Positions 2,694 through 9,778 of a stretch of DNA of 64,000 bases are shown piece by piece (position 1 is the first letter of the stretch; each line of letters starts with the position of its first letter). Source of the DNA: Patescibacteria group bacterium (GTDB lineage: Bacteria; Patescibacteriota; Minisyncoccia; Phycocordibacterales; Zambryskibacteraceae). The DNA lies in contig SCSN01000016.1 of assembly GCA_004322205.1 (NCBI GenBank), forward strand, positions 27,118 through 91,117. The letters are read 5' to 3'. Both the position numbers and the translations under genes were made by a program. The notes beneath the pieces were generated by a model. That model was not told the origin of the DNA and made no database searches. It was given only the letters and a program-made list of their open reading frames with translations.

Positions 2694-2948
2694 CTATTGC
2701 AGGCTTTCTGATAACCTCTTTTTAAGTTGCGCGGGGACCCGGCCATCTTTTTTGAGAGCGGCTTCACGGCGACGGGTGTCCTTTTCGGCTGAATACGCCT
2801 CATAATATTTTAGCTTAAAAGGTGTGCGGGTTTTGGTAGATTGCACCTTGCCCTCGTTATGACCAGAAAGCCTGCGTCGCAAATCACTGGTCGAACCTAT
2901 GTATAATTTACCGTCTTTCAAACTTTTCAACACATAAAGGTAGTACAT
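2694..2948 (-). CDS. GIY-YIG nuclease domain protein (UvrC-N/Slx1-like small nuclease)
   Basis: The motif is YYLYVLKSLKDGKLYIGSTSDLRRRLSGHN (GIY-YIG ... R ... H N). The start is trimmed to MYYLY. Confidence 0.6.
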   Translation of the reverse strand: MYYLYVLKSLKDGKLYIGSTSDLRRRLSGHNEGKVQSTKTRTPFKLKYYEAYSAEKDTRRREAALKKDGRVPAQLKKRLSESLQ

Positions 2949-3147
2949 TGAGAAGACAATGAAATTATTGGCGTGGGTCGGGCACTGTCCGGAGTTATAA
3001 CCGTACTCGAGGACAGGGGTTATATGGTTACGGTACGCGAAAAAATCAACAATATCAAGCGCGTTGGCAAATTTTATGACTTCCCGATGCCGTACCAGCC
3101 GAAATAGCCAACTCACCCCAAGTCACCCTAACTCACCCGTTTTCGGC

Positions 3148-3365
3148 AAAAGTCCGGTCCAAACCATTTCACCTTATCCCACCAGTGGCCACCGGTTTTG
3201 AGCAAAAAATCCGGTCCAAAATCATTTAACCGCAACTGACCTTATTTAACCGTTTTTTGCCCAACTATTTGCCCCGGTGGCGAGCTTTGTGCCAGGAATC
3301 GACGTTCGCCCCACCTTGCAACCTCGACCACCGGTTTGACCAAATTTGAACCCTTGGGACGATTG
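3148..3365. repeat. array of about 4 imperfect direct repeats (about 38-bp unit ccggttttgAgcaaaaAatccggtccaaaAtcatttaacc), iteron-like
   Basis: Unit copies lie at 3148-3185 and 3203-3243, with partial copies at 3251-3275 and 3339-3365. The array is intergenic between the GIY-YIG gene and ORF 3427. Confidence 0.45.
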
Positions 3366-3426
3366 TGGGTAACTACGCCAAAATCAGCTTGGCTTCCGCG
3401 AAGGATAAGCATAGGGTTGGGCGTGC

Positions 3427-3735
3427 ATGGAAAATGACGACATTGAAGCGGTCGTCCAAGCCGCAAAAAATATACGACTCAAGTACCGGAAAGGCACGCT
3501 CAACCCGCTTTCTTTGCTTCCTGAATCGAAAGCCAAATTGAAAGCCGCGATCAAGGATCGCATCCGGCTATTGTCAGCCTCTTACATATCGCTCGCCGGC
3601 TTCGTCGATGATGACAATGTTCTTTTTGCGGAACGAAACCCCACATCAAAGAAAACCCGAAGAATTTACCTCAAAATAATCGAGGATATGGAAACGGCAC
3701 AAAAAGAACTGCGTTGTTTTCTTAAGAAGATTTGA
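3427..3735 (+). CDS. hypothetical protein (102 aa), 3' end overlaps the RT gene convergently
   Basis: It is an ORF only, with no recognisable domain. Confidence 0.25.
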   Translation: MENDDIEAVVQAAKNIRLKYRKGTLNPLSLLPESKAKLKAAIKDRIRLLSASYISLAGFVDDDNVLFAERNPTSKKTRRIYLKIIEDMETAQKELRCFLKKI

Positions 3736-4729
3736 TCGATTTTTCTTTGAGTATTTTCTGTCTCAACTTCCAGCTATTGCCGTGACTCATAAGACCGAGA
3801 TATGACTGCACCGTTTCTTCCTTTCCATCTTTCGCTTGTATATTCCTGAACATCCGTTTTTTGGTAGTCGTCCTTAAAACCCTGTGATCCGGAAAATGCA
3901 CCCAACCGAGAAAATCCACGCCCGATGCGACGGTCTGAATGAAAATCTTATCCGGATGCATGACGAGCTTGAGCTTGCTTCCCAAAAATTCCTGCATCGC
4001 CGGCAGAATGGTCTCAAGGTACACTTTGTCTGTCGAAAGGACGGCAAAGTCATCTGCATAACGCAGATAATATTTCGCCTTGAGTCGATGCTTCATAAAT
4101 TGGTCGAATTCATTCATGTATATGTTTACCAAAAGCTGGGACGTCAAATTGCCGAGCGGAAGTCCGACGCCTGCGGTTCTTGAATTAAAGCTCCGGACGA
4201 TGATCGACATGAGATCGAGGACATCTTGATCGGGAATATATTTAGCAGCTATATCCAAGAGAATTGCATGGTCGATGTTTGCGAAGAACTTTTTAATATC
4301 GCATTTGAGCACCCATACCGTCCGTATGTTGTTCTCGGATACCATGCCGATGAATTTTCTAAACCTGCGAAGAGCGCGGTGCGTGCCTTTCCCGTCTTGG
4401 CATGAATTCGAGTCGGGAATAAACGTCTTTGCGAAAAATGGCGACAGTTGCCTGTGCAATGCGTGATGCAAAAGCCGGTCCCGAACGTTGGCTTTGTGTA
4501 TATCGCGCGGTTTCGGATCGGCGATTTTGAAATGCTGATATGCCGAATGCGAATATTTTCTCGCGGCAAGCTCGCGGTGGAGCGCGATGATGTTCGTCAT
4601 CAAATCTCGCTCGAATTCCTGCACGTCTTTACGCGTTCGCTTGCCGCGGACGAATTCTTTCCACGCCTCGAGGAGATTTTCGAGCGAGATGATATTATTA
4701 TATGTATGATGAAATCTAATTTTGGGCAT
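3722..4729 (-). CDS. diversity-generating retroelement (DGR) reverse transcriptase
   Basis: RT motifs 1-7 are present. Close colinear similarity to the Bordetella phage bRT as recalled is seen in DSNSCQDGKGTH, VLKCDIKKFFANIDHAILL, GLPLGNLTSQLL (the DGR-type SQ motif), RYADDFAVL (YxDD) and LHP.K...GVDFLGW. The start is set at MPKIRF (4729). The longer ORF to 4834 only adds a translation of the (TTGG)n repeat. Confidence 0.8.
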   Translation of the reverse strand: MPKIRFHHTYNNIISLENLLEAWKEFVRGKRTRKDVQEFERDLMTNIIALHRELAARKYSHSAYQHFKIADPKPRDIHKANVRDRLLHHALHRQLSPFFAKTFIPDSNSCQDGKGTHRALRRFRKFIGMVSENNIRTVWVLKCDIKKFFANIDHAILLDIAAKYIPDQDVLDLMSIIVRSFNSRTAGVGLPLGNLTSQLLVNIYMNEFDQFMKHRLKAKYYLRYADDFAVLSTDKVYLETILPAMQEFLGSKLKLVMHPDKIFIQTVASGVDFLGWVHFPDHRVLRTTTKKRMFRNIQAKDGKEETVQSYLGLMSHGNSWKLRQKILKEKSIKSS

Positions 4730-4730
4730 A

Positions 4731-5150
4731 ATGGTGGTAACCAACCAACCAACCAACCAACCAACCAACCAACCAACCAATAAGATTTTACCGGTTTTAG
4801 GTAAAGTCAAGGAGTCGTACCTTTTGTGGTACAAATTTTATCTGGATTTACCAAAGACGCATCGTCATTCTCTTGGTCAGCGCATCGACACTTTATTTGT
4901 CGAAGTGATAGAGGCGATATCGGCCGCAAGTTTTCTCTCGCCTGCGGAGAAGCATCCGTATGTTCGTCTCGCGATCAAAAAAGCGGACACTCTCCGCGTA
5001 CTTCTTTTGGTGCTTTGGGAAACGAAATCTTTGGACGATAAAAAATACATCGCCCTTTCGGTAAAGCTGGACGAAGCCGGCAAAATGCTCGGCGGATGGA
5101 ACGGACAGCTCGCAAAACAAAACTCTCCAGCGAAAGCCGGAGAGAAATGA
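4731..5150 (+). CDS. avd: DGR accessory variability determinant (Avd; four-helix-bundle protein)
   Basis: It has a conserved four-helix-bundle/Avd-like core (KESYLLWYKFYLDLPKTHRHSLGQRIDTLFVEV...). The C-terminus (GKMLGGWNGQLAKQN) resembles the bAvd C-terminus as recalled. The N-terminus as drawn (ATG 4731) includes the CCAA repeat, and the real start is uncertain. Confidence 0.6.
   Translation: MVVTNQPTNQPTNQPTNKILPVLGKVKESYLLWYKFYLDLPKTHRHSLGQRIDTLFVEVIEAISAASFLSPAEKHPYVRLAIKKADTLRVLLLVLWETKSLDDKKYIALSVKLDEAGKMLGGWNGQLAKQNSPAKAGEK
4741..4780. repeat. tetranucleotide microsatellite (CCAA)10 / (TTGG)10
   Basis: There are ten perfect tandem CCAA units. They lie 12 nt upstream of the RT start on the minus strand and inside the 5' coding region of the plus-strand avd ORF (NQPTNQPTNQPT). 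Confidence 0.95.
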
Positions 5151-5156
5151 AGAGAG

Positions 5157-5282
5157 TTGCGACACGGCGAACGCGAACCCGTTGTCACGATTCCACCTGT
5201 TGTCAGGCCTGTCGTTGTACGCGTTGAGCCAGCGACCATCGTCGTTACGGTTCGCGTTCAGCAAGTTCGGATCGCCGTCGGA
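5157..5282 (-). repeat. DGR template repeat (TR)
   Basis: This 126 bp aligns with 5629-5754 at 111/126 identity. All 15 mismatches fall at positions that are T on the given strand, which is A on the minus (RNA-sense) strand. Confidence 0.85.
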
Positions 5283-5502: not shown

Positions 5503-5545
5503 CACGAATATTATATATGAAATTTATTTTTATGAAAAAATTTAG
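5503..5545 (-). promoter_or_regulatory. candidate sigma70-like promoter reading toward the TR (minus strand)
   Basis: The minus-strand sequence is ttcata-N17-taatat / tataat (the TATAAT-like box is around 5510-5515), lying between the target-gene terminator and the TR. Confidence 0.25.
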
Positions 5546-5572
5546 CCCTGCTCCGACGGATCGGAACAGGGC
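5533..5572 (-). terminator. rho-independent terminator of the DGR target gene
   Basis: The minus-strand hairpin gccctgttccgatccgtcggagcagggc is followed by a T-run (taaatttttt). Confidence 0.6.
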
Positions 5573-5589
5573 TAAGGGCTAAGCTCAAA

Positions 5590-5610: not shown

Positions 5611-6249
5611 TTAGGATTGAGAACTGACTTGCGACACGGCGAACGCGAACCCGTTGTCACGATTCCACCTGCGGCCAGGCCTGACGATGAACGCGTCGAG
5701 CCAGCGACCACCGTCGCTACGGTCCGCGCCCAGCAAGCGCGGATCGCCGCCGGAGTCGTTGATGGGTTCGTGCATTGCGACGATCCACCAGAGGAGACCC
5801 ATGGCTTCGATCTCCTCATCCGTGAACTTCTCACGGATGAGGCAGGCCAGTTCGGCGTTCGGCTTGGACAGCTTGCGCTTGTCGGCTTCGGTGCGGATCT
5901 TCTTCGTGATCCGGTCGTTGTCCTCGAAGAGCATGCCCTTGAGAACGGCGACTTCGGTCGTCACGCCATTGGTCGGCTTGAAGTCCGGCGAACGGAGCAC
6001 CTGCTTGGCGTAGTCTCCGACGCGGAAACCGTTGCCTTCCAGACGCTTGATCCAGTCCTCGCCGGTCGTGCCGTCGCTGGTGACGCTGAAGTAGATGACG
6101 CCGTCTTCCTCGCGCCACGAACGGATCGGTTCGGAAACCGAGAGTTCGTCGCGGAGAAAACGGAGCGCCATGTCGTGGCCACCGAGCTTCTTGACGATGG
6201 CGTTGAGTTGGCCGGCGGTAAGACCGGCGGATGCGAATTCTGTGCTCAT
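5611..6249 (-). CDS. DGR variable (target) protein, C-terminal C-type-lectin-like VR region
   Basis: The 3' terminal 126 bp of the ORF is the VR. The C-terminus RWLDAFIVRPGRRWNRDNGFAFAVSQ has the pattern typical of DGR variable proteins. No obvious signal peptide is present. Confidence 0.7.
   Translation of the reverse strand: MSTEFASAGLTAGQLNAIVKKLGGHDMALRFLRDELSVSEPIRSWREEDGVIYFSVTSDGTTGEDWIKRLEGNGFRVGDYAKQVLRSPDFKPTNGVTTEVAVLKGMLFEDNDRITKKIRTEADKRKLSKPNAELACLIREKFTDEEIEAMGLLWWIVAMHEPINDSGGDPRLLGADRSDGGRWLDAFIVRPGRRWNRDNGFAFAVSQVSSQS
5629..5754 (-). repeat. DGR variable repeat (VR)
   Basis: It is the counterpart of the TR, with substitutions only at TR-adenine positions. At the amino-acid level AAC (Asn) codons in the TR correspond to G/D/S/I/R in the VR. 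Confidence 0.85.
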
Positions 6250-6399
6250 GATTTTATCTCCTGGGCTAATTTGCCCGTTTTCGTTTTCCTCTAATCCGAG
6301 GAGGAACCATGGCCTGTGTGGTCATAGCGAGGAATGGCCTAGTTTTAAGCCACTTTTCGCTATGACCAATCGCAAGTCTTATCAAAGAACTATACCTAC

Positions 6400-7760
6400 T
6401 ATCATACACCTAAACGCCATATTTGTCAATAGTCCCCCGAGGAAATAGGGTTGCCAAATAAAGGCCCAGTTAAGCAAAATTGCTTACGGGTTGCGTGACA
6501 GCTTGGTTGCCGACCGACAATCAAAAACCTATGAACAACAACGTATTAACGTATGCCGAATACCAAAAAAGACTGAAAGAATTGAAAACGCCCGAGGATA
6601 TCGCCTCGTTCGCCCAAGAGCTTATCGCTCCCGCCCTTGCCGGAAATATGACTCCGGAAAAGAAAGAGGATAAGCCGGATGAGCCGAAAGACGAAGCTCC
6701 GGAGGAACCTCGCAAGAAGCGCATCCTTCTGCCGAAGGAAAAACTCTATGCGATCCGAAAGCTTCAACTTACAGACGCGAACGTGATCAGTCCGTGGTAC
6801 GACGTGGTGGGCAACGATACCGATGCGATGGTAATCAGCCTCTACGCCAAAGGTCTGACGACGCGCGACATCTCAAGCTACCTTAAGAATATGCACGGGA
6901 TCGAAATCGCGCAACCGTCGATATCCGCAATCACCGACAAAGTGTTTCCGTTGGTGAAAGAATGGCAGATGCGATCTCTTTCGTCATGCTATCCGGTCGT
7001 ATACCTCGACGGTTTGCATTTCAAAGTCCGCGACGCCGGCAAGATCGTGTCCAAGGTCGCCTACATCGTGCTTGGCATAAATCAGTACGGACAAAAAGAG
7101 GTGCTTGGCATCTGGGTGAGCGAATCCGAGGGATCGAAGTTCTGGATGCATGTGCTCAATGACATGAAGAATCGAGGCGTCGATGACATACTCATCGCTT
7201 GTGTGGACGGTCTGAAAGGTTTTCCGGAAGCGATCAAAGCCATGTATCCTCACGTCGACGTGCAGGTGTGCATCGCGCATCAGATCAGACACACGATCAT
7301 GTTCATTCCGCACAAGGACAAGAAGCAATTCTGCGACGAGCTCAAATCCATTTACACGGCCGCGAATGAGGAAGCTGGCATGGACTCCCTCAAAGACATG
7401 ATGGAACGCTGGCCGCAGTACCGCTCGTATCTCAAGAGCTGGGAAACTCGATGGTCTGACTTGATACCGTTCTTCGGCTATCCGCAACCGATCCGAAAAA
7501 TGGTCTACACCACGAACGCCATCGAAAATCTCAATAGGCAGTTCCGCAAGGTGACCAAGACGACGACTATCTTCCCTCACGATGACGCGCTTATAAAGCT
7601 GTTATGGCTGGCGCAGGCCGACATCACGCAGGGATGGGTGCTTACCACAAGAAATTGGGGAGAAGTTATGGCTCAACTCAATATTCTGTTTCCGGATCGC
7701 GTACACTTCTAATCGCCGATCCAGTCGACATTAATTAACTAACCGGCCGGTCCAGAACTC
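6400..7760 (+). mobile_element. IS256-family insertion sequence (boundaries not resolved)
   Basis: The transposase gene is present, but I could not find convincing terminal inverted repeats by eye. The coordinates are only a bracket. Confidence 0.4.
6531..7712 (+). CDS. IS256-family (Mutator-type) transposase
   Basis: There is full-length similarity to IS256/mutator transposases (...CYPVVYLDGLHFKVRD...LIACVDGLKGFPEAI...CIAHQIRH...). The start is trimmed to MNNNVLTYAEY. Confidence 0.85.
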   Translation: MNNNVLTYAEYQKRLKELKTPEDIASFAQELIAPALAGNMTPEKKEDKPDEPKDEAPEEPRKKRILLPKEKLYAIRKLQLTDANVISPWYDVVGNDTDAMVISLYAKGLTTRDISSYLKNMHGIEIAQPSISAITDKVFPLVKEWQMRSLSSCYPVVYLDGLHFKVRDAGKIVSKVAYIVLGINQYGQKEVLGIWVSESEGSKFWMHVLNDMKNRGVDDILIACVDGLKGFPEAIKAMYPHVDVQVCIAHQIRHTIMFIPHKDKKQFCDELKSIYTAANEEAGMDSLKDMMERWPQYRSYLKSWETRWSDLIPFFGYPQPIRKMVYTTNAIENLNRQFRKVTKTTTIFPHDDALIKLLWLAQADITQGWVLTTRNWGEVMAQLNILFPDRVHF

Positions 7761-9154: not shown

Positions 9155-9778
9155 CTAGGCGGATTCCAAGCGGCTTCCGCCAGAGAGACTGCGAAAAGCC
9201 CTCTCCTGATAACGGTGCCTGACCCATGAGATTTCCTCTTCCGAGGCCCCATCCGCCTTCGCAAGCCTTGCCCAATCAGTGTAGGCCCCCCAAACAGCAG
9301 TTACCGGGGAATCGAACACTTCTTGAGGCAGAAGCTGATAGCCGAACTTCTCCAAAACCCACAGCACCTCATGGCGAAGGCGGGAGAGAATGCCGGGAAA
9401 ACGCATAGCCCCGCGGAAACCATTCCTCACCAAGATAAGCGCCCATAACAAAGTGAGGTGATCAACATCTGCTTGAGGCAGAGGTTCGTCGCGCCCATGA
9501 CGCCCTGTGGCTAAATTGCCGTTCTCGGATACCCTCTTGTTGTAGCGCGAACGAATCGAGAGCAGTCTTTCGCCCACTGGCCAAAGAAAAAACTGATCAG
9601 GATCAGCCCTCCTGAATTCCTTTCCGGTTCTTTCCCTGAAAAGCTCGAGGCGGAAAGCCAGCTCCTCCTCGAAAAGCGAGCGGGAAAGACCGTTTTTGGC
9701 GGGGAAAAACCCCATACCGGCTGCGATCCGAAGCAACAGGCGCGCCAGCTTCAAGACAAAACTAGGCTTGGCAGCCAC
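9155..9778 (-). CDS. hypothetical protein
   Basis: It is a 207-aa ORF with no recognised domain. Confidence 0.3.
   Translation of the reverse strand: MAAKPSFVLKLARLLLRIAAGMGFFPAKNGLSRSLFEEELAFRLELFRERTGKEFRRADPDQFFLWPVGERLLSIRSRYNKRVSENGNLATGRHGRDEPLPQADVDHLTLLWALILVRNGFRGAMRFPGILSRLRHEVLWVLEKFGYQLLPQEVFDSPVTAVWGAYTDWARLAKADGASEEEISWVRHRYQERAFRSLSGGSRLESA

Follow-up and report, generated by a model that had tools for sequence, protein, structure and literature searches.

We analysed a 64,000-nucleotide window of the Patescibacteria contig SCSN01000016.1 (assembly GCA_004322205.1; positions 27,118 to 91,117) and found that a gene at 5611–6249 on the minus strand encodes the variable protein, or target, of an intact, cell-encoded diversity-generating retroelement (DGR). 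The best overall explanation, to which we give a probability of roughly 0.6, is that this target consists mostly of one lectin-like domain, carries no export signal and is likely cytoplasmic. The elements of the DGR, numbered from the first letter of the window, are as follows.

5611..6249, minus strand: the DGR target (variable protein) gene, defined by its open reading frame (ORF) and its homologues.
5621..5754, minus strand: the variable repeat (VR), residues 166–209, with 19 codons opposite adenines of the template repeat (residues 167–199), then the invariant strand GFAFAVSQ.
5629..5652, minus strand: an A-free 24-nt segment resembling an initiation of mutagenic homing (IMH) site, identical in both repeats and encoding the final β-strand.
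5542..5575, minus strand: a GC-rich 15-bp hairpin with a T-run, 36 nt past the target stop, from an inverted-repeat and terminator scan.
5149..5282, minus strand: the template repeat (TR), with 30 adenines, outside any real gene.
4722..5150, plus strand: the gene of the accessory protein Avd, running against target, TR and reverse transcriptase, its stop abutting the TR.
3722..4729, minus strand: the DGR reverse transcriptase (RT) gene, with a likely start MPKIRF at 4729; the mechanical ORF reaches 4834.

VR and TR form a repeat pair of 134 nt with 87% identity, separated by 472 nt; the first lies at the 3′ end of the target gene and the second is non-coding. All 15 mismatches in the core replace a TR adenine by another base in the VR, always at the first or second position of a codon. 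Just three mismatches do not involve adenine, and these are located at the extreme 3′ end, beyond the 24-nt A-free segment, directly after which the two repeats diverge. Exact matches to this segment in the window are found at 5157–5180 and 5629–5652 and nowhere else. The adenine-mismatch pattern is repeated in 17 related loci, each compared with its own TR, and the adenine-templated VR columns also vary across homologues. With 19 adenine-bearing TR codons in the target frame, the computed VR repertoire is approximately 10^16.4 protein variants.

The RT matches RVT_1 (E 2.7e-23) and PHROG 1423 (E 5.5e-108), and in related loci its homologues come after the target. Avd matches PHROG 3206, ‘Avd protein of DGR’ (E 5.7e-15), and NF033474 (E 9.7e-15), both below the curated cut-offs, and scores 37.5 bits against PF22296 (bAvd), under the 40-bit cut-off. 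Its start overlaps the RT start, which creates a divergent, overlapping gene pair, and this inverted-Avd layout is also present in L001 and about 15 other loci. An earlier note on this DNA, made from the letters, had called the gene a DGR target, and the adenine pattern of the repeats together with the adjacent RT and Avd bears this out. The hairpin at 5542–5575 looks like an intrinsic terminator and occupies the usual position of a DGR target-site hairpin.

The target ORF encodes 212 amino acids (N-terminus MSTEFASAGLTAGQLNAIVKKLGG, C-terminus ...RWLDAFIVRPGRRWNRDNGFAFAVSQVSSQS; 23.7 kDa, pI 5.6) and is preceded by a Shine–Dalgarno (SD)-like AGGAGA 8 nt 5′ of the ATG. Its GC content is 0.62, compared with 0.49 for the whole window, and reaches 0.80 at third codon positions (GC3). 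We found 2,096 homologues; the best 120 of these are all about 211 residues long and 83–100% identical, and come from metagenome-assembled genomes named Uhr-, Wolfe-, Niyogi-, Giovannoni-, Harrison- and Brennerbacteria. A profile search of clusters at 50% identity returned 2,174 representatives, of which 673 have E <1e-30. There is no Pfam model for the family. A phage origin of the target was considered and rejected: relatives are absent from 50,697 GenBank phage records and from IMG/VR, the latter searched with N-terminal peptide patterns and the core motif YFSVTSDGTTG.

We built an AlphaFold model of the target with 88 diverse family representatives as the alignment. It has a predicted local distance difference test score (pLDDT) of 96.2 and a predicted template modelling score (pTM) of 0.86; with 33 near-identical homologues the pLDDT is 40 and the model is unusable. 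The chain is divided as follows.

6118..6249, minus strand: an N-terminal two-helix module, residues 1–44 (helices 12–21 and 25–32), from AlphaFold and locus comparison.
5623..6117, minus strand: a C-type-lectin-like (CLec) core, residues 45–209, from AlphaFold, Foldseek and the family alignment.

Strands are predicted at residues 46–48, 51–59, 94–104, 155–158, 170–176, 183–188 and 200–209, and further helices at 63–72 and 79–86, with a three-helix insert at 115–149. The core elements follow the order β1-α1-α2-β2-(three helices)-β3-β4-β4′-β5, which is the CLec topology described for DGR proteins including AvpA (Handa et al. 2016, PMC5006420). The earlier note had proposed a structure prediction and fold search, and the answer is a mixed one: C-type lectin-like domains make up 48 of the top 50 Foldseek matches in the PDB (E 0.02–0.6) and viral C-type lectins head and dominate the matches in BFVD, but none of the PDB matches is significant. 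Residues ~45–209 are strongly predicted to form one divergent CLec domain with a three-helix insert, and we regard the CLec assignment, judged from the model, as probable. The pTM indicates one rigid body, and the whole target is strongly predicted to be a single compact globule. The variable residues are equally strongly predicted to lie on the last strands and loops, as they do in Mtd, TvpA and AvpA. Since the alignment block, the order of elements in the model and the fold search agree, the VR probably represents the last third of a lectin-like domain of ~165 residues.

The earlier note had assumed a different architecture, an uncharacterised N-terminal domain followed by a lectin-like element of ~45 residues; residues 1–160 would then have a distinct function of their own, for instance as an effector, an enzyme or a signalling domain. 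Such a division would agree with the restriction of the recognisable GxW...RPxxRW...GF motif to the C-terminal end, with fold matches that are individually insignificant, and with the profile searches of residues 1–160 that the note had suggested, which indeed cover this region with no sequence family. A CLec fold, however, requires about 100 residues or more and pairs its first strand with its last, and residues 45–209 are predicted to contain exactly these elements in exactly this order, in a model whose pTM speaks for one body. Family representatives align as a single block from residue ~40 to ~210 of the query, and residues 45–160 occur without the VR part only in truncated fragments. Furthermore, the breakpoint at which N-termini are swapped between relatives (see below) is at residues ~41–44 and not near 160. 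A two-domain protein is thus very improbable, and the claim that only the last ~45 residues are lectin-like is not supported: residues ~40–210 behave as one unit with a CLec-like order of elements. The description of the N-terminal domain as uncharacterised stands insofar as no family matches it, but most of this region would be the front two-thirds of the lectin, and the separate part is just ~40 residues long.

In Pfam, the target has no match at E ≤0.1 and the 88 family members have none at E ≤1, including FGE-sulfatase (PF03781) and DUF1566. Searches of NCBIfam, PHROGs, PADLOC and PDB sequences with phmmer and profiles gave no accepted match, and none of these databases links the target to a secreted adhesin, a family to which the earlier note had thought the N-terminal domain might belong. 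The single PDB profile match, to the Ig-like repeat protein 9ncf_S (E 6.9e-5), was rejected as spurious; it is the sum of four matches of 4–9 bits to a 30-residue stretch.

The closest parallel we find is AvpA (PDB 5IOO) from Nanoarchaeota-related archaea, which like the target is a small protein from an ultra-small, host-dependent lineage. AvpA is a single CLec domain of ~210 residues with inserts, a fold that sequence methods failed to predict (PMC5006420); in both proteins nearly the whole chain would be one CLec fold with lineage-specific inserts that is invisible to sequence methods. The nearest structural neighbour of AvpA is the animal lectin CLEC5A (PMC5006420), and the target likewise finds its closest structural neighbours among animal C-type lectins and not in Mtd or TvpA. 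Both also encode their last strand in the non-variable end of the repeat. The two proteins nevertheless differ in several respects. The VR of the target (~40 codons, 19 of them variable) ends no more than five residues from the C-terminus, whereas in AvpA a tail of 46 residues follows a short VR. In the target the third core strand precedes the VR, an arrangement shared with Mtd and TvpA but not with AvpA. The inserts are placed elsewhere, and the target has an additional N-terminal helical module and a bacterial (Patescibacteria) host. The AvpA motifs GxxVVVYAH, HPxxxPFxG and RFxGV are all absent from the target sequence, and 5IOO is not returned by the PDB profile search at E ≤10.

TvpA of Treponema denticola and LdtA of Legionella share with the target a C-terminal VR on a lectin fold (a predicted one in the target), a chromosomal location with Avd and RT, and a similar motif logic, G-x-W ... 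R-P-x-x-R ... G-F-[RA]. Both are surface lipoproteins with Pfam FGE-sulfatase or DUF1566 domains, whereas the target has neither a lipobox nor a Pfam domain, and in its family lipoboxes are confined to the rare relatives P0182 and P0213. CLec sensors of STAND/NACHT and MoxR conflict systems (Kaur et al. 2020; Dore et al. 2024, PMC10907252) resemble the target in being predicted to be cytoplasmic, DGR-diversified binding domains of lectin fold, and both fit the notion of a hypervariable ‘antigen’ sensor inside the cell. Unlike the target with its 212 residues, these sensors are large and multidomain, equipped with an NTPase transducer and with effector partners. No NTPase domain was detected in the target or its conserved neighbours, the target has no PADLOC match, and its RT belongs to the candidate phyla radiation (CPR) lineage and not to clade 5.

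DGR targets of the CPR were reportedly surveyed by Paul et al. in 2017. The CPR clade 2 targets (Roux et al. 2021) and the unclassified CPR VR classes UVR1–6 (Wu et al. 2018) come from the same host group as our target, belong to cell-encoded DGRs and contain no recognisable domains; their folds were left undetermined in these surveys (Roux et al. 2021, PMC8144416; Wu et al. 2018). Our target very probably belongs to one of the surveyed CPR families. The surveys do not treat this family on its own, and domain boundaries, the N-terminal module, the leader RNA and synonymous conservation are absent from the survey texts compared. What the present analysis adds is the predicted single-domain build of the target, an N-terminal module that seems to be exchangeable, evidence of horizontal spread, and the leader RNA.

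To locate the protein, we checked for export signals by a rule-based hydropathy and motif scan. The earlier note had described a small protein with neither signal peptide nor transmembrane (TM) segment, and the negative scan of all 212 residues confirms this. The highest mean Kyte–Doolittle value over 19 residues anywhere in the protein is 0.73, where a TM segment would be expected to reach ~1.6, and the first 10 residues contain no positive charge. Neither a Tat (RR) motif nor an LPXTG sorting motif is present. There is also no lipobox, which is in fact impossible since the sole cysteine is residue 136. An alternative start supplies neither a signal nor a lipobox: read upstream from the ATG, the frame meets a stop at 25 codons and no other start codon on the way. 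Lacking a Sec, Tat or lipoprotein signal, a membrane anchor and a cell-wall sorting motif, the target most likely remains in the cytoplasm; we consider it somewhat better than an even bet that the protein is cytoplasmic, or at least not exported by Sec. The absence of an export signal is typical of Patescibacteria DGR targets and not exceptional, as already published: CPR clade 2 targets typically lack TM segments, signals and other domains (Roux et al. 2021, PMC8144416), and cytoplasmic DGR-diversified CLec sensors have been predicted before (Dore et al. 2024, PMC10907252).

Comparison with the family provides evidence in both directions. A hydrophobic N-terminus is missing from 145 of 150 diverse representatives. 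Among the others, P0182 (...FFLAGC) and P0213 (...VFGSC) have a lipobox, P0193 has a Sec signal and P0136 and P0233 have a TM helix. P0182, encoded at locus L059, retains the family promoter and the leader hairpin on its contig, which identifies it as a genuine relative with a lipoprotein signal in the N-terminal slot. The lipoboxes of P0182 and P0213 and the signal peptide of P0193 imply that the core scaffold also functions outside the cell. The TM helix of P0233 is followed by KKNNRK, so that according to the positive-inside rule its lectin domain would stay inside. At least one representative, P0146, begins with a CxxC zinc-ribbon-like module, of a type usually found in proteins inside the cell. 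Only one cysteine is conserved in the family, which argues against disulfides.

These data also bear on the possibility that the protein is displayed or secreted although it has no N-terminal signal, its helical hairpin docking the lectin to a pilus, an S-layer or some other partner; the diversified protein would then vary the attachment of the episymbiont to its host cells. The exported relatives are in line with this, as they carry their signals directly ahead of the same core, and in P0193 the signal peptide is followed by the helical module. So is the N-terminal module itself, which is under protein-level selection and common to several scaffolds, as would be expected of a shared docking element. 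In addition, the characterised targets Mtd, TvpA and LdtA are surface-exposed (PMC5758913), and attachment is the role commonly proposed for CPR and DPANN targets (PMC5006420). On the other hand, the large majority of representatives without a hydrophobic N-terminus, the zinc-ribbon-like module of P0146, the inward orientation of P0233 and the lack of disulfides all speak for the cytoplasm. Moreover, when the ORFs of 57 loci were clustered, no secretion-system or surface-protein gene was found to be conserved beside the target; SIMPL, ribosomal protein S20 and other neighbours are scattered among the loci. We therefore judge surface display, the main rival, to be unlikely, while still taking it seriously, and continue to favour a cytoplasmic lectin.

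Several points weigh against that preference. The best Foldseek match in the PDB has an E-value of 0.019, none reaches 1e-3, TM-scores are ~0.2 and solved DGR proteins are outside the top 50. At the sequence level, profile searches do not connect the family to Mtd, AvpA, TvpA or FGE-sulfatase, and hhalign gives a probability of 0.1% for the family profile against Bordetella phage Mtd. The CLec assignment rests on a predicted structure and weak fold matches. As for location, a lipobox or signal peptide stands ahead of the same core in three of the 150 representatives, Patescibacteria could export proteins by unrecognised routes, and the clustering of the 57 loci reveals no conserved partner gene beyond Avd and RT.

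The N-terminal module appears to be exchangeable. Its sequence, FASAxLTAGQLNAIVKKLGGHxxALRFLRDEL-VSE, heads different C-terminal scaffolds and VR types in five related loci (L051, 2247–3005; L053, 7998–8594; L054, 7998–8573; L055, 2230–2808; L056, 1661–2296). The scaffold-swapped proteins are small and signal-less, are preceded by the same leader, have C-termini such as ...NGWANIVYI...WAV...QVVSR and give no Pfam match. Those of L051, L053 and L054 adjoin their own Avd and RT, whereas those of L055 and L056 do not. Across scaffolds, the ~39 residues of the module are 82–85% identical while 4-fold sites are saturated (0.22–0.26), which indicates that selection acts on the module as a peptide. 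Conversely, the first ~40 residues vary in several helical ‘flavours’ among family representatives. The N-terminal slot thus seems to determine where the protein goes or which partner it has.

We compared the target with 55 related loci, fetched from one-genome-per-species contigs. Where a DGR is present, the order is fixed: target, ~330 nt, TR, inverted Avd, RT. About half of the loci have no RT within 8 kb, and orphan copies such as L010, L014, L016, L023, L027 and L037 consist of target, leader and hairpin, with no TR, Avd or RT in the flanks examined. Nucleotide homology among the loci begins sharply at the −35 box of the promoter, upstream of which the flanks are unrelated. It ends just past the hairpin in the orphans (at ~5520–5560 of the window, with the hairpin kept) and continues through the TR into Avd in the DGR-linked loci.

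Outside the VR, the target shares 88–97% of its nucleotides with copies that stand beside RTs of only ~58% amino acid identity, and TRs are 97–100% identical across loci with RTs as divergent as this. The identity at 4-fold sites is 0.74–0.95 for the target but 0.24–0.33 for the adjacent RT. In the same genome pairs, it is 0.74–0.87 for the target and 0.14–0.39 for flanking housekeeping homologues (27–50% amino acid identity), unannotated genes that we take from their sequences to be L15, SecY, SSB and Fpg. GC3 of the target is 0.80 here and 0.67–0.83 elsewhere, as against 0.32–0.58 for the RT. Because synonymous sites are nearly identical where those of RT and housekeeping genes are saturated, because GC3 is ~0.8 and because homology ends sharply, the simplest reading is that a module of promoter, leader, target, hairpin and in some cases TR has spread recently and horizontally among deeply diverged Patescibacteria and has been joined to divergent Avd and RT genes. 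At a repeat as conserved as this, chimeric assembly might obscure some of the junctions, but the layout is also that of the closed genome CP066687.

Recent arrival raises the question of whether the target is a decayed or passive passenger, its VR and TR a relic and the cassette a recent arrival next to an insertion sequence (IS) element. In favour of this are the target's GC3 of 0.80, which does not match the genome, and the lack of a nearby RT in about half of the related loci; in addition, an IS256/Mutator-family transposase gene (6480–7712, plus strand; PF00872, E 1e-84) is located directly upstream, ~50 nt past the promoter boundary of the cassette. This transposase is specific to the window and is found beside the cassette in none of the other loci compared. 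Against a passenger, RT, Avd, TR, IMH-like segment and hairpin are all intact, and the VR core differs from the TR only at adenines, with no mismatches of the kind that decay would leave. The target shows a pattern of purifying selection (amino acid identity ~0.9, 4-fold identity ~0.8), and even orphan VRs differ from the window TR almost solely at adenines (22 adenine and 3 non-adenine differences in L014, 17 and 1 in L027). We consider a passive passenger extremely improbable and retain the view that the gene is the variable protein of an intact DGR.

The gene has a promoter and leader of its own.

6401..6429, minus strand: a sigma-70-type promoter of the target, TTGACA, 17 nt, TATGAT, with 11 of 12 consensus matches.
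6250..6394, minus strand: a structured 5′ leader RNA of ~145 nt, from RNAalifold covariation.

The leader comprises a 20-bp hairpin (6319–6368) and two short ones, a CCUC/GAGG mini-hairpin and, directly ahead of the SD sequence, a GGGC/GCCC hairpin. The same promoter and leader element is found in L003–L049 and in L059. In an alignment of 26 leader sequences, 95.8% of cells are paired and RNAalifold identifies compensatory changes in 16 of 27 pairs, as compared with 7.7 ± 1.3 in shuffled alignments and 4–7 in slid controls. G-U is the commonest pair at one position, which indicates that it is the sense-strand RNA that folds. The leader of the window folds at −55 kcal/mol (z −6.7), and Rfam 15 contains no match to it at E ≤1. 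The minimum-energy fold shows an additional long-range helix over the SD sequence and start codon, but this masking helix receives no support from covariation (2 covarying pairs, 2.6 in shuffles). The leader is a candidate for a new cis-regulatory RNA of Patescibacteria DGR targets.

These features combine into the following picture. The DGR anatomy shows that adenines of a TR next to RT and Avd are replaced in the VR, that up to 19 codons (residues 167–199) can be rewritten and that the A-free 3′ part of the repeat encodes the fixed last strand, GFAFAVSQ. The target would be a soluble, hypervariable module for ligand binding that stands alone, lacking any enzymatic or effector domain, and fast-changing phage or host-derived molecules are candidate ligands. 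Alternatively, it may reach its site of action through a partner docked by the exchangeable N-terminal module. With its own promoter, structured leader RNA and terminator or target-site hairpin, the gene would be a self-contained expression unit which, together with the TR, works beside divergent RT genes. A more far-reaching version of this scheme is an intracellular ‘antibody-like’ binder on a cassette (promoter, leader, adaptor, lectin, hairpin, TR) that has recently swept through deeply diverged Patescibacteria and plugs into unrelated resident Avd and RT genes, the N-terminal adaptor deciding on place or partner; as a whole we find this doubtful.

DGRs are unusually common in Patescibacteria (CPR), and the role of their targets is an acknowledged open question (Roux et al. 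2021). The family described here is very abundant, forming over 2,000 clusters at the 50% identity level, and lends itself to tests: it has a confident model, defined boundaries, an exchangeable N-terminal module and natural variants that carry lipoprotein signals in place of this module. If our reading is true, the near-identity of synonymous sites among hosts with saturated housekeeping genes would reflect a recent, wide horizontal spread of a target-plus-TR module independent of the RT, and the covarying leader would add a new element to the regulation of a hypervariable protein.

Some further observations concern the surroundings of the cassette. An antisense ORF of 225 codons (5617–6294, plus strand) covers the entire target gene, and at least 26 loci have it as well. 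We rejected it as a gene: given the third-position composition of the target (GC3 0.80, third-position A 8%), it is most likely a by-product. In L002/L019, two target copies are located 5 kb apart, near an rve integrase and a serine recombinase. A 9-bp hairpin with a T-run (5123–5144) is found just 3′ of the TR and within the antisense of Avd; as Avd is inverted, the RNA downstream of the TR is antisense to it.

On the 3′ side of the RT, a block of ~400 nt (2975–3384) is 78–92% identical in L008, L009 and L011. The block spans the start of a mechanical ORF that contains a GIY-YIG domain (2694–3116). A role of this nuclease as a mobility factor is unsupported, since three loci share only its 47–65 N-terminal codons, which are outside the domain. 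The segment in between (3385–3752), which includes an ORF at 3427–3735 (plus strand), has no RNA family match and is absent in L008, L009 and L011, and thus reflects either an insertion or a deletion.

The first codons of Avd contain a perfect (AACC)x10.5 repeat (4739–4780), which encodes TNQPTNQPTNQP and is located 10–50 nt upstream of the divergent RT start. Closer relatives have no such repeat, and L020 has 11 AACC units at the equivalent place (9580–9623). Through slipped-strand changes, the tract might switch the DGR machinery on and off.

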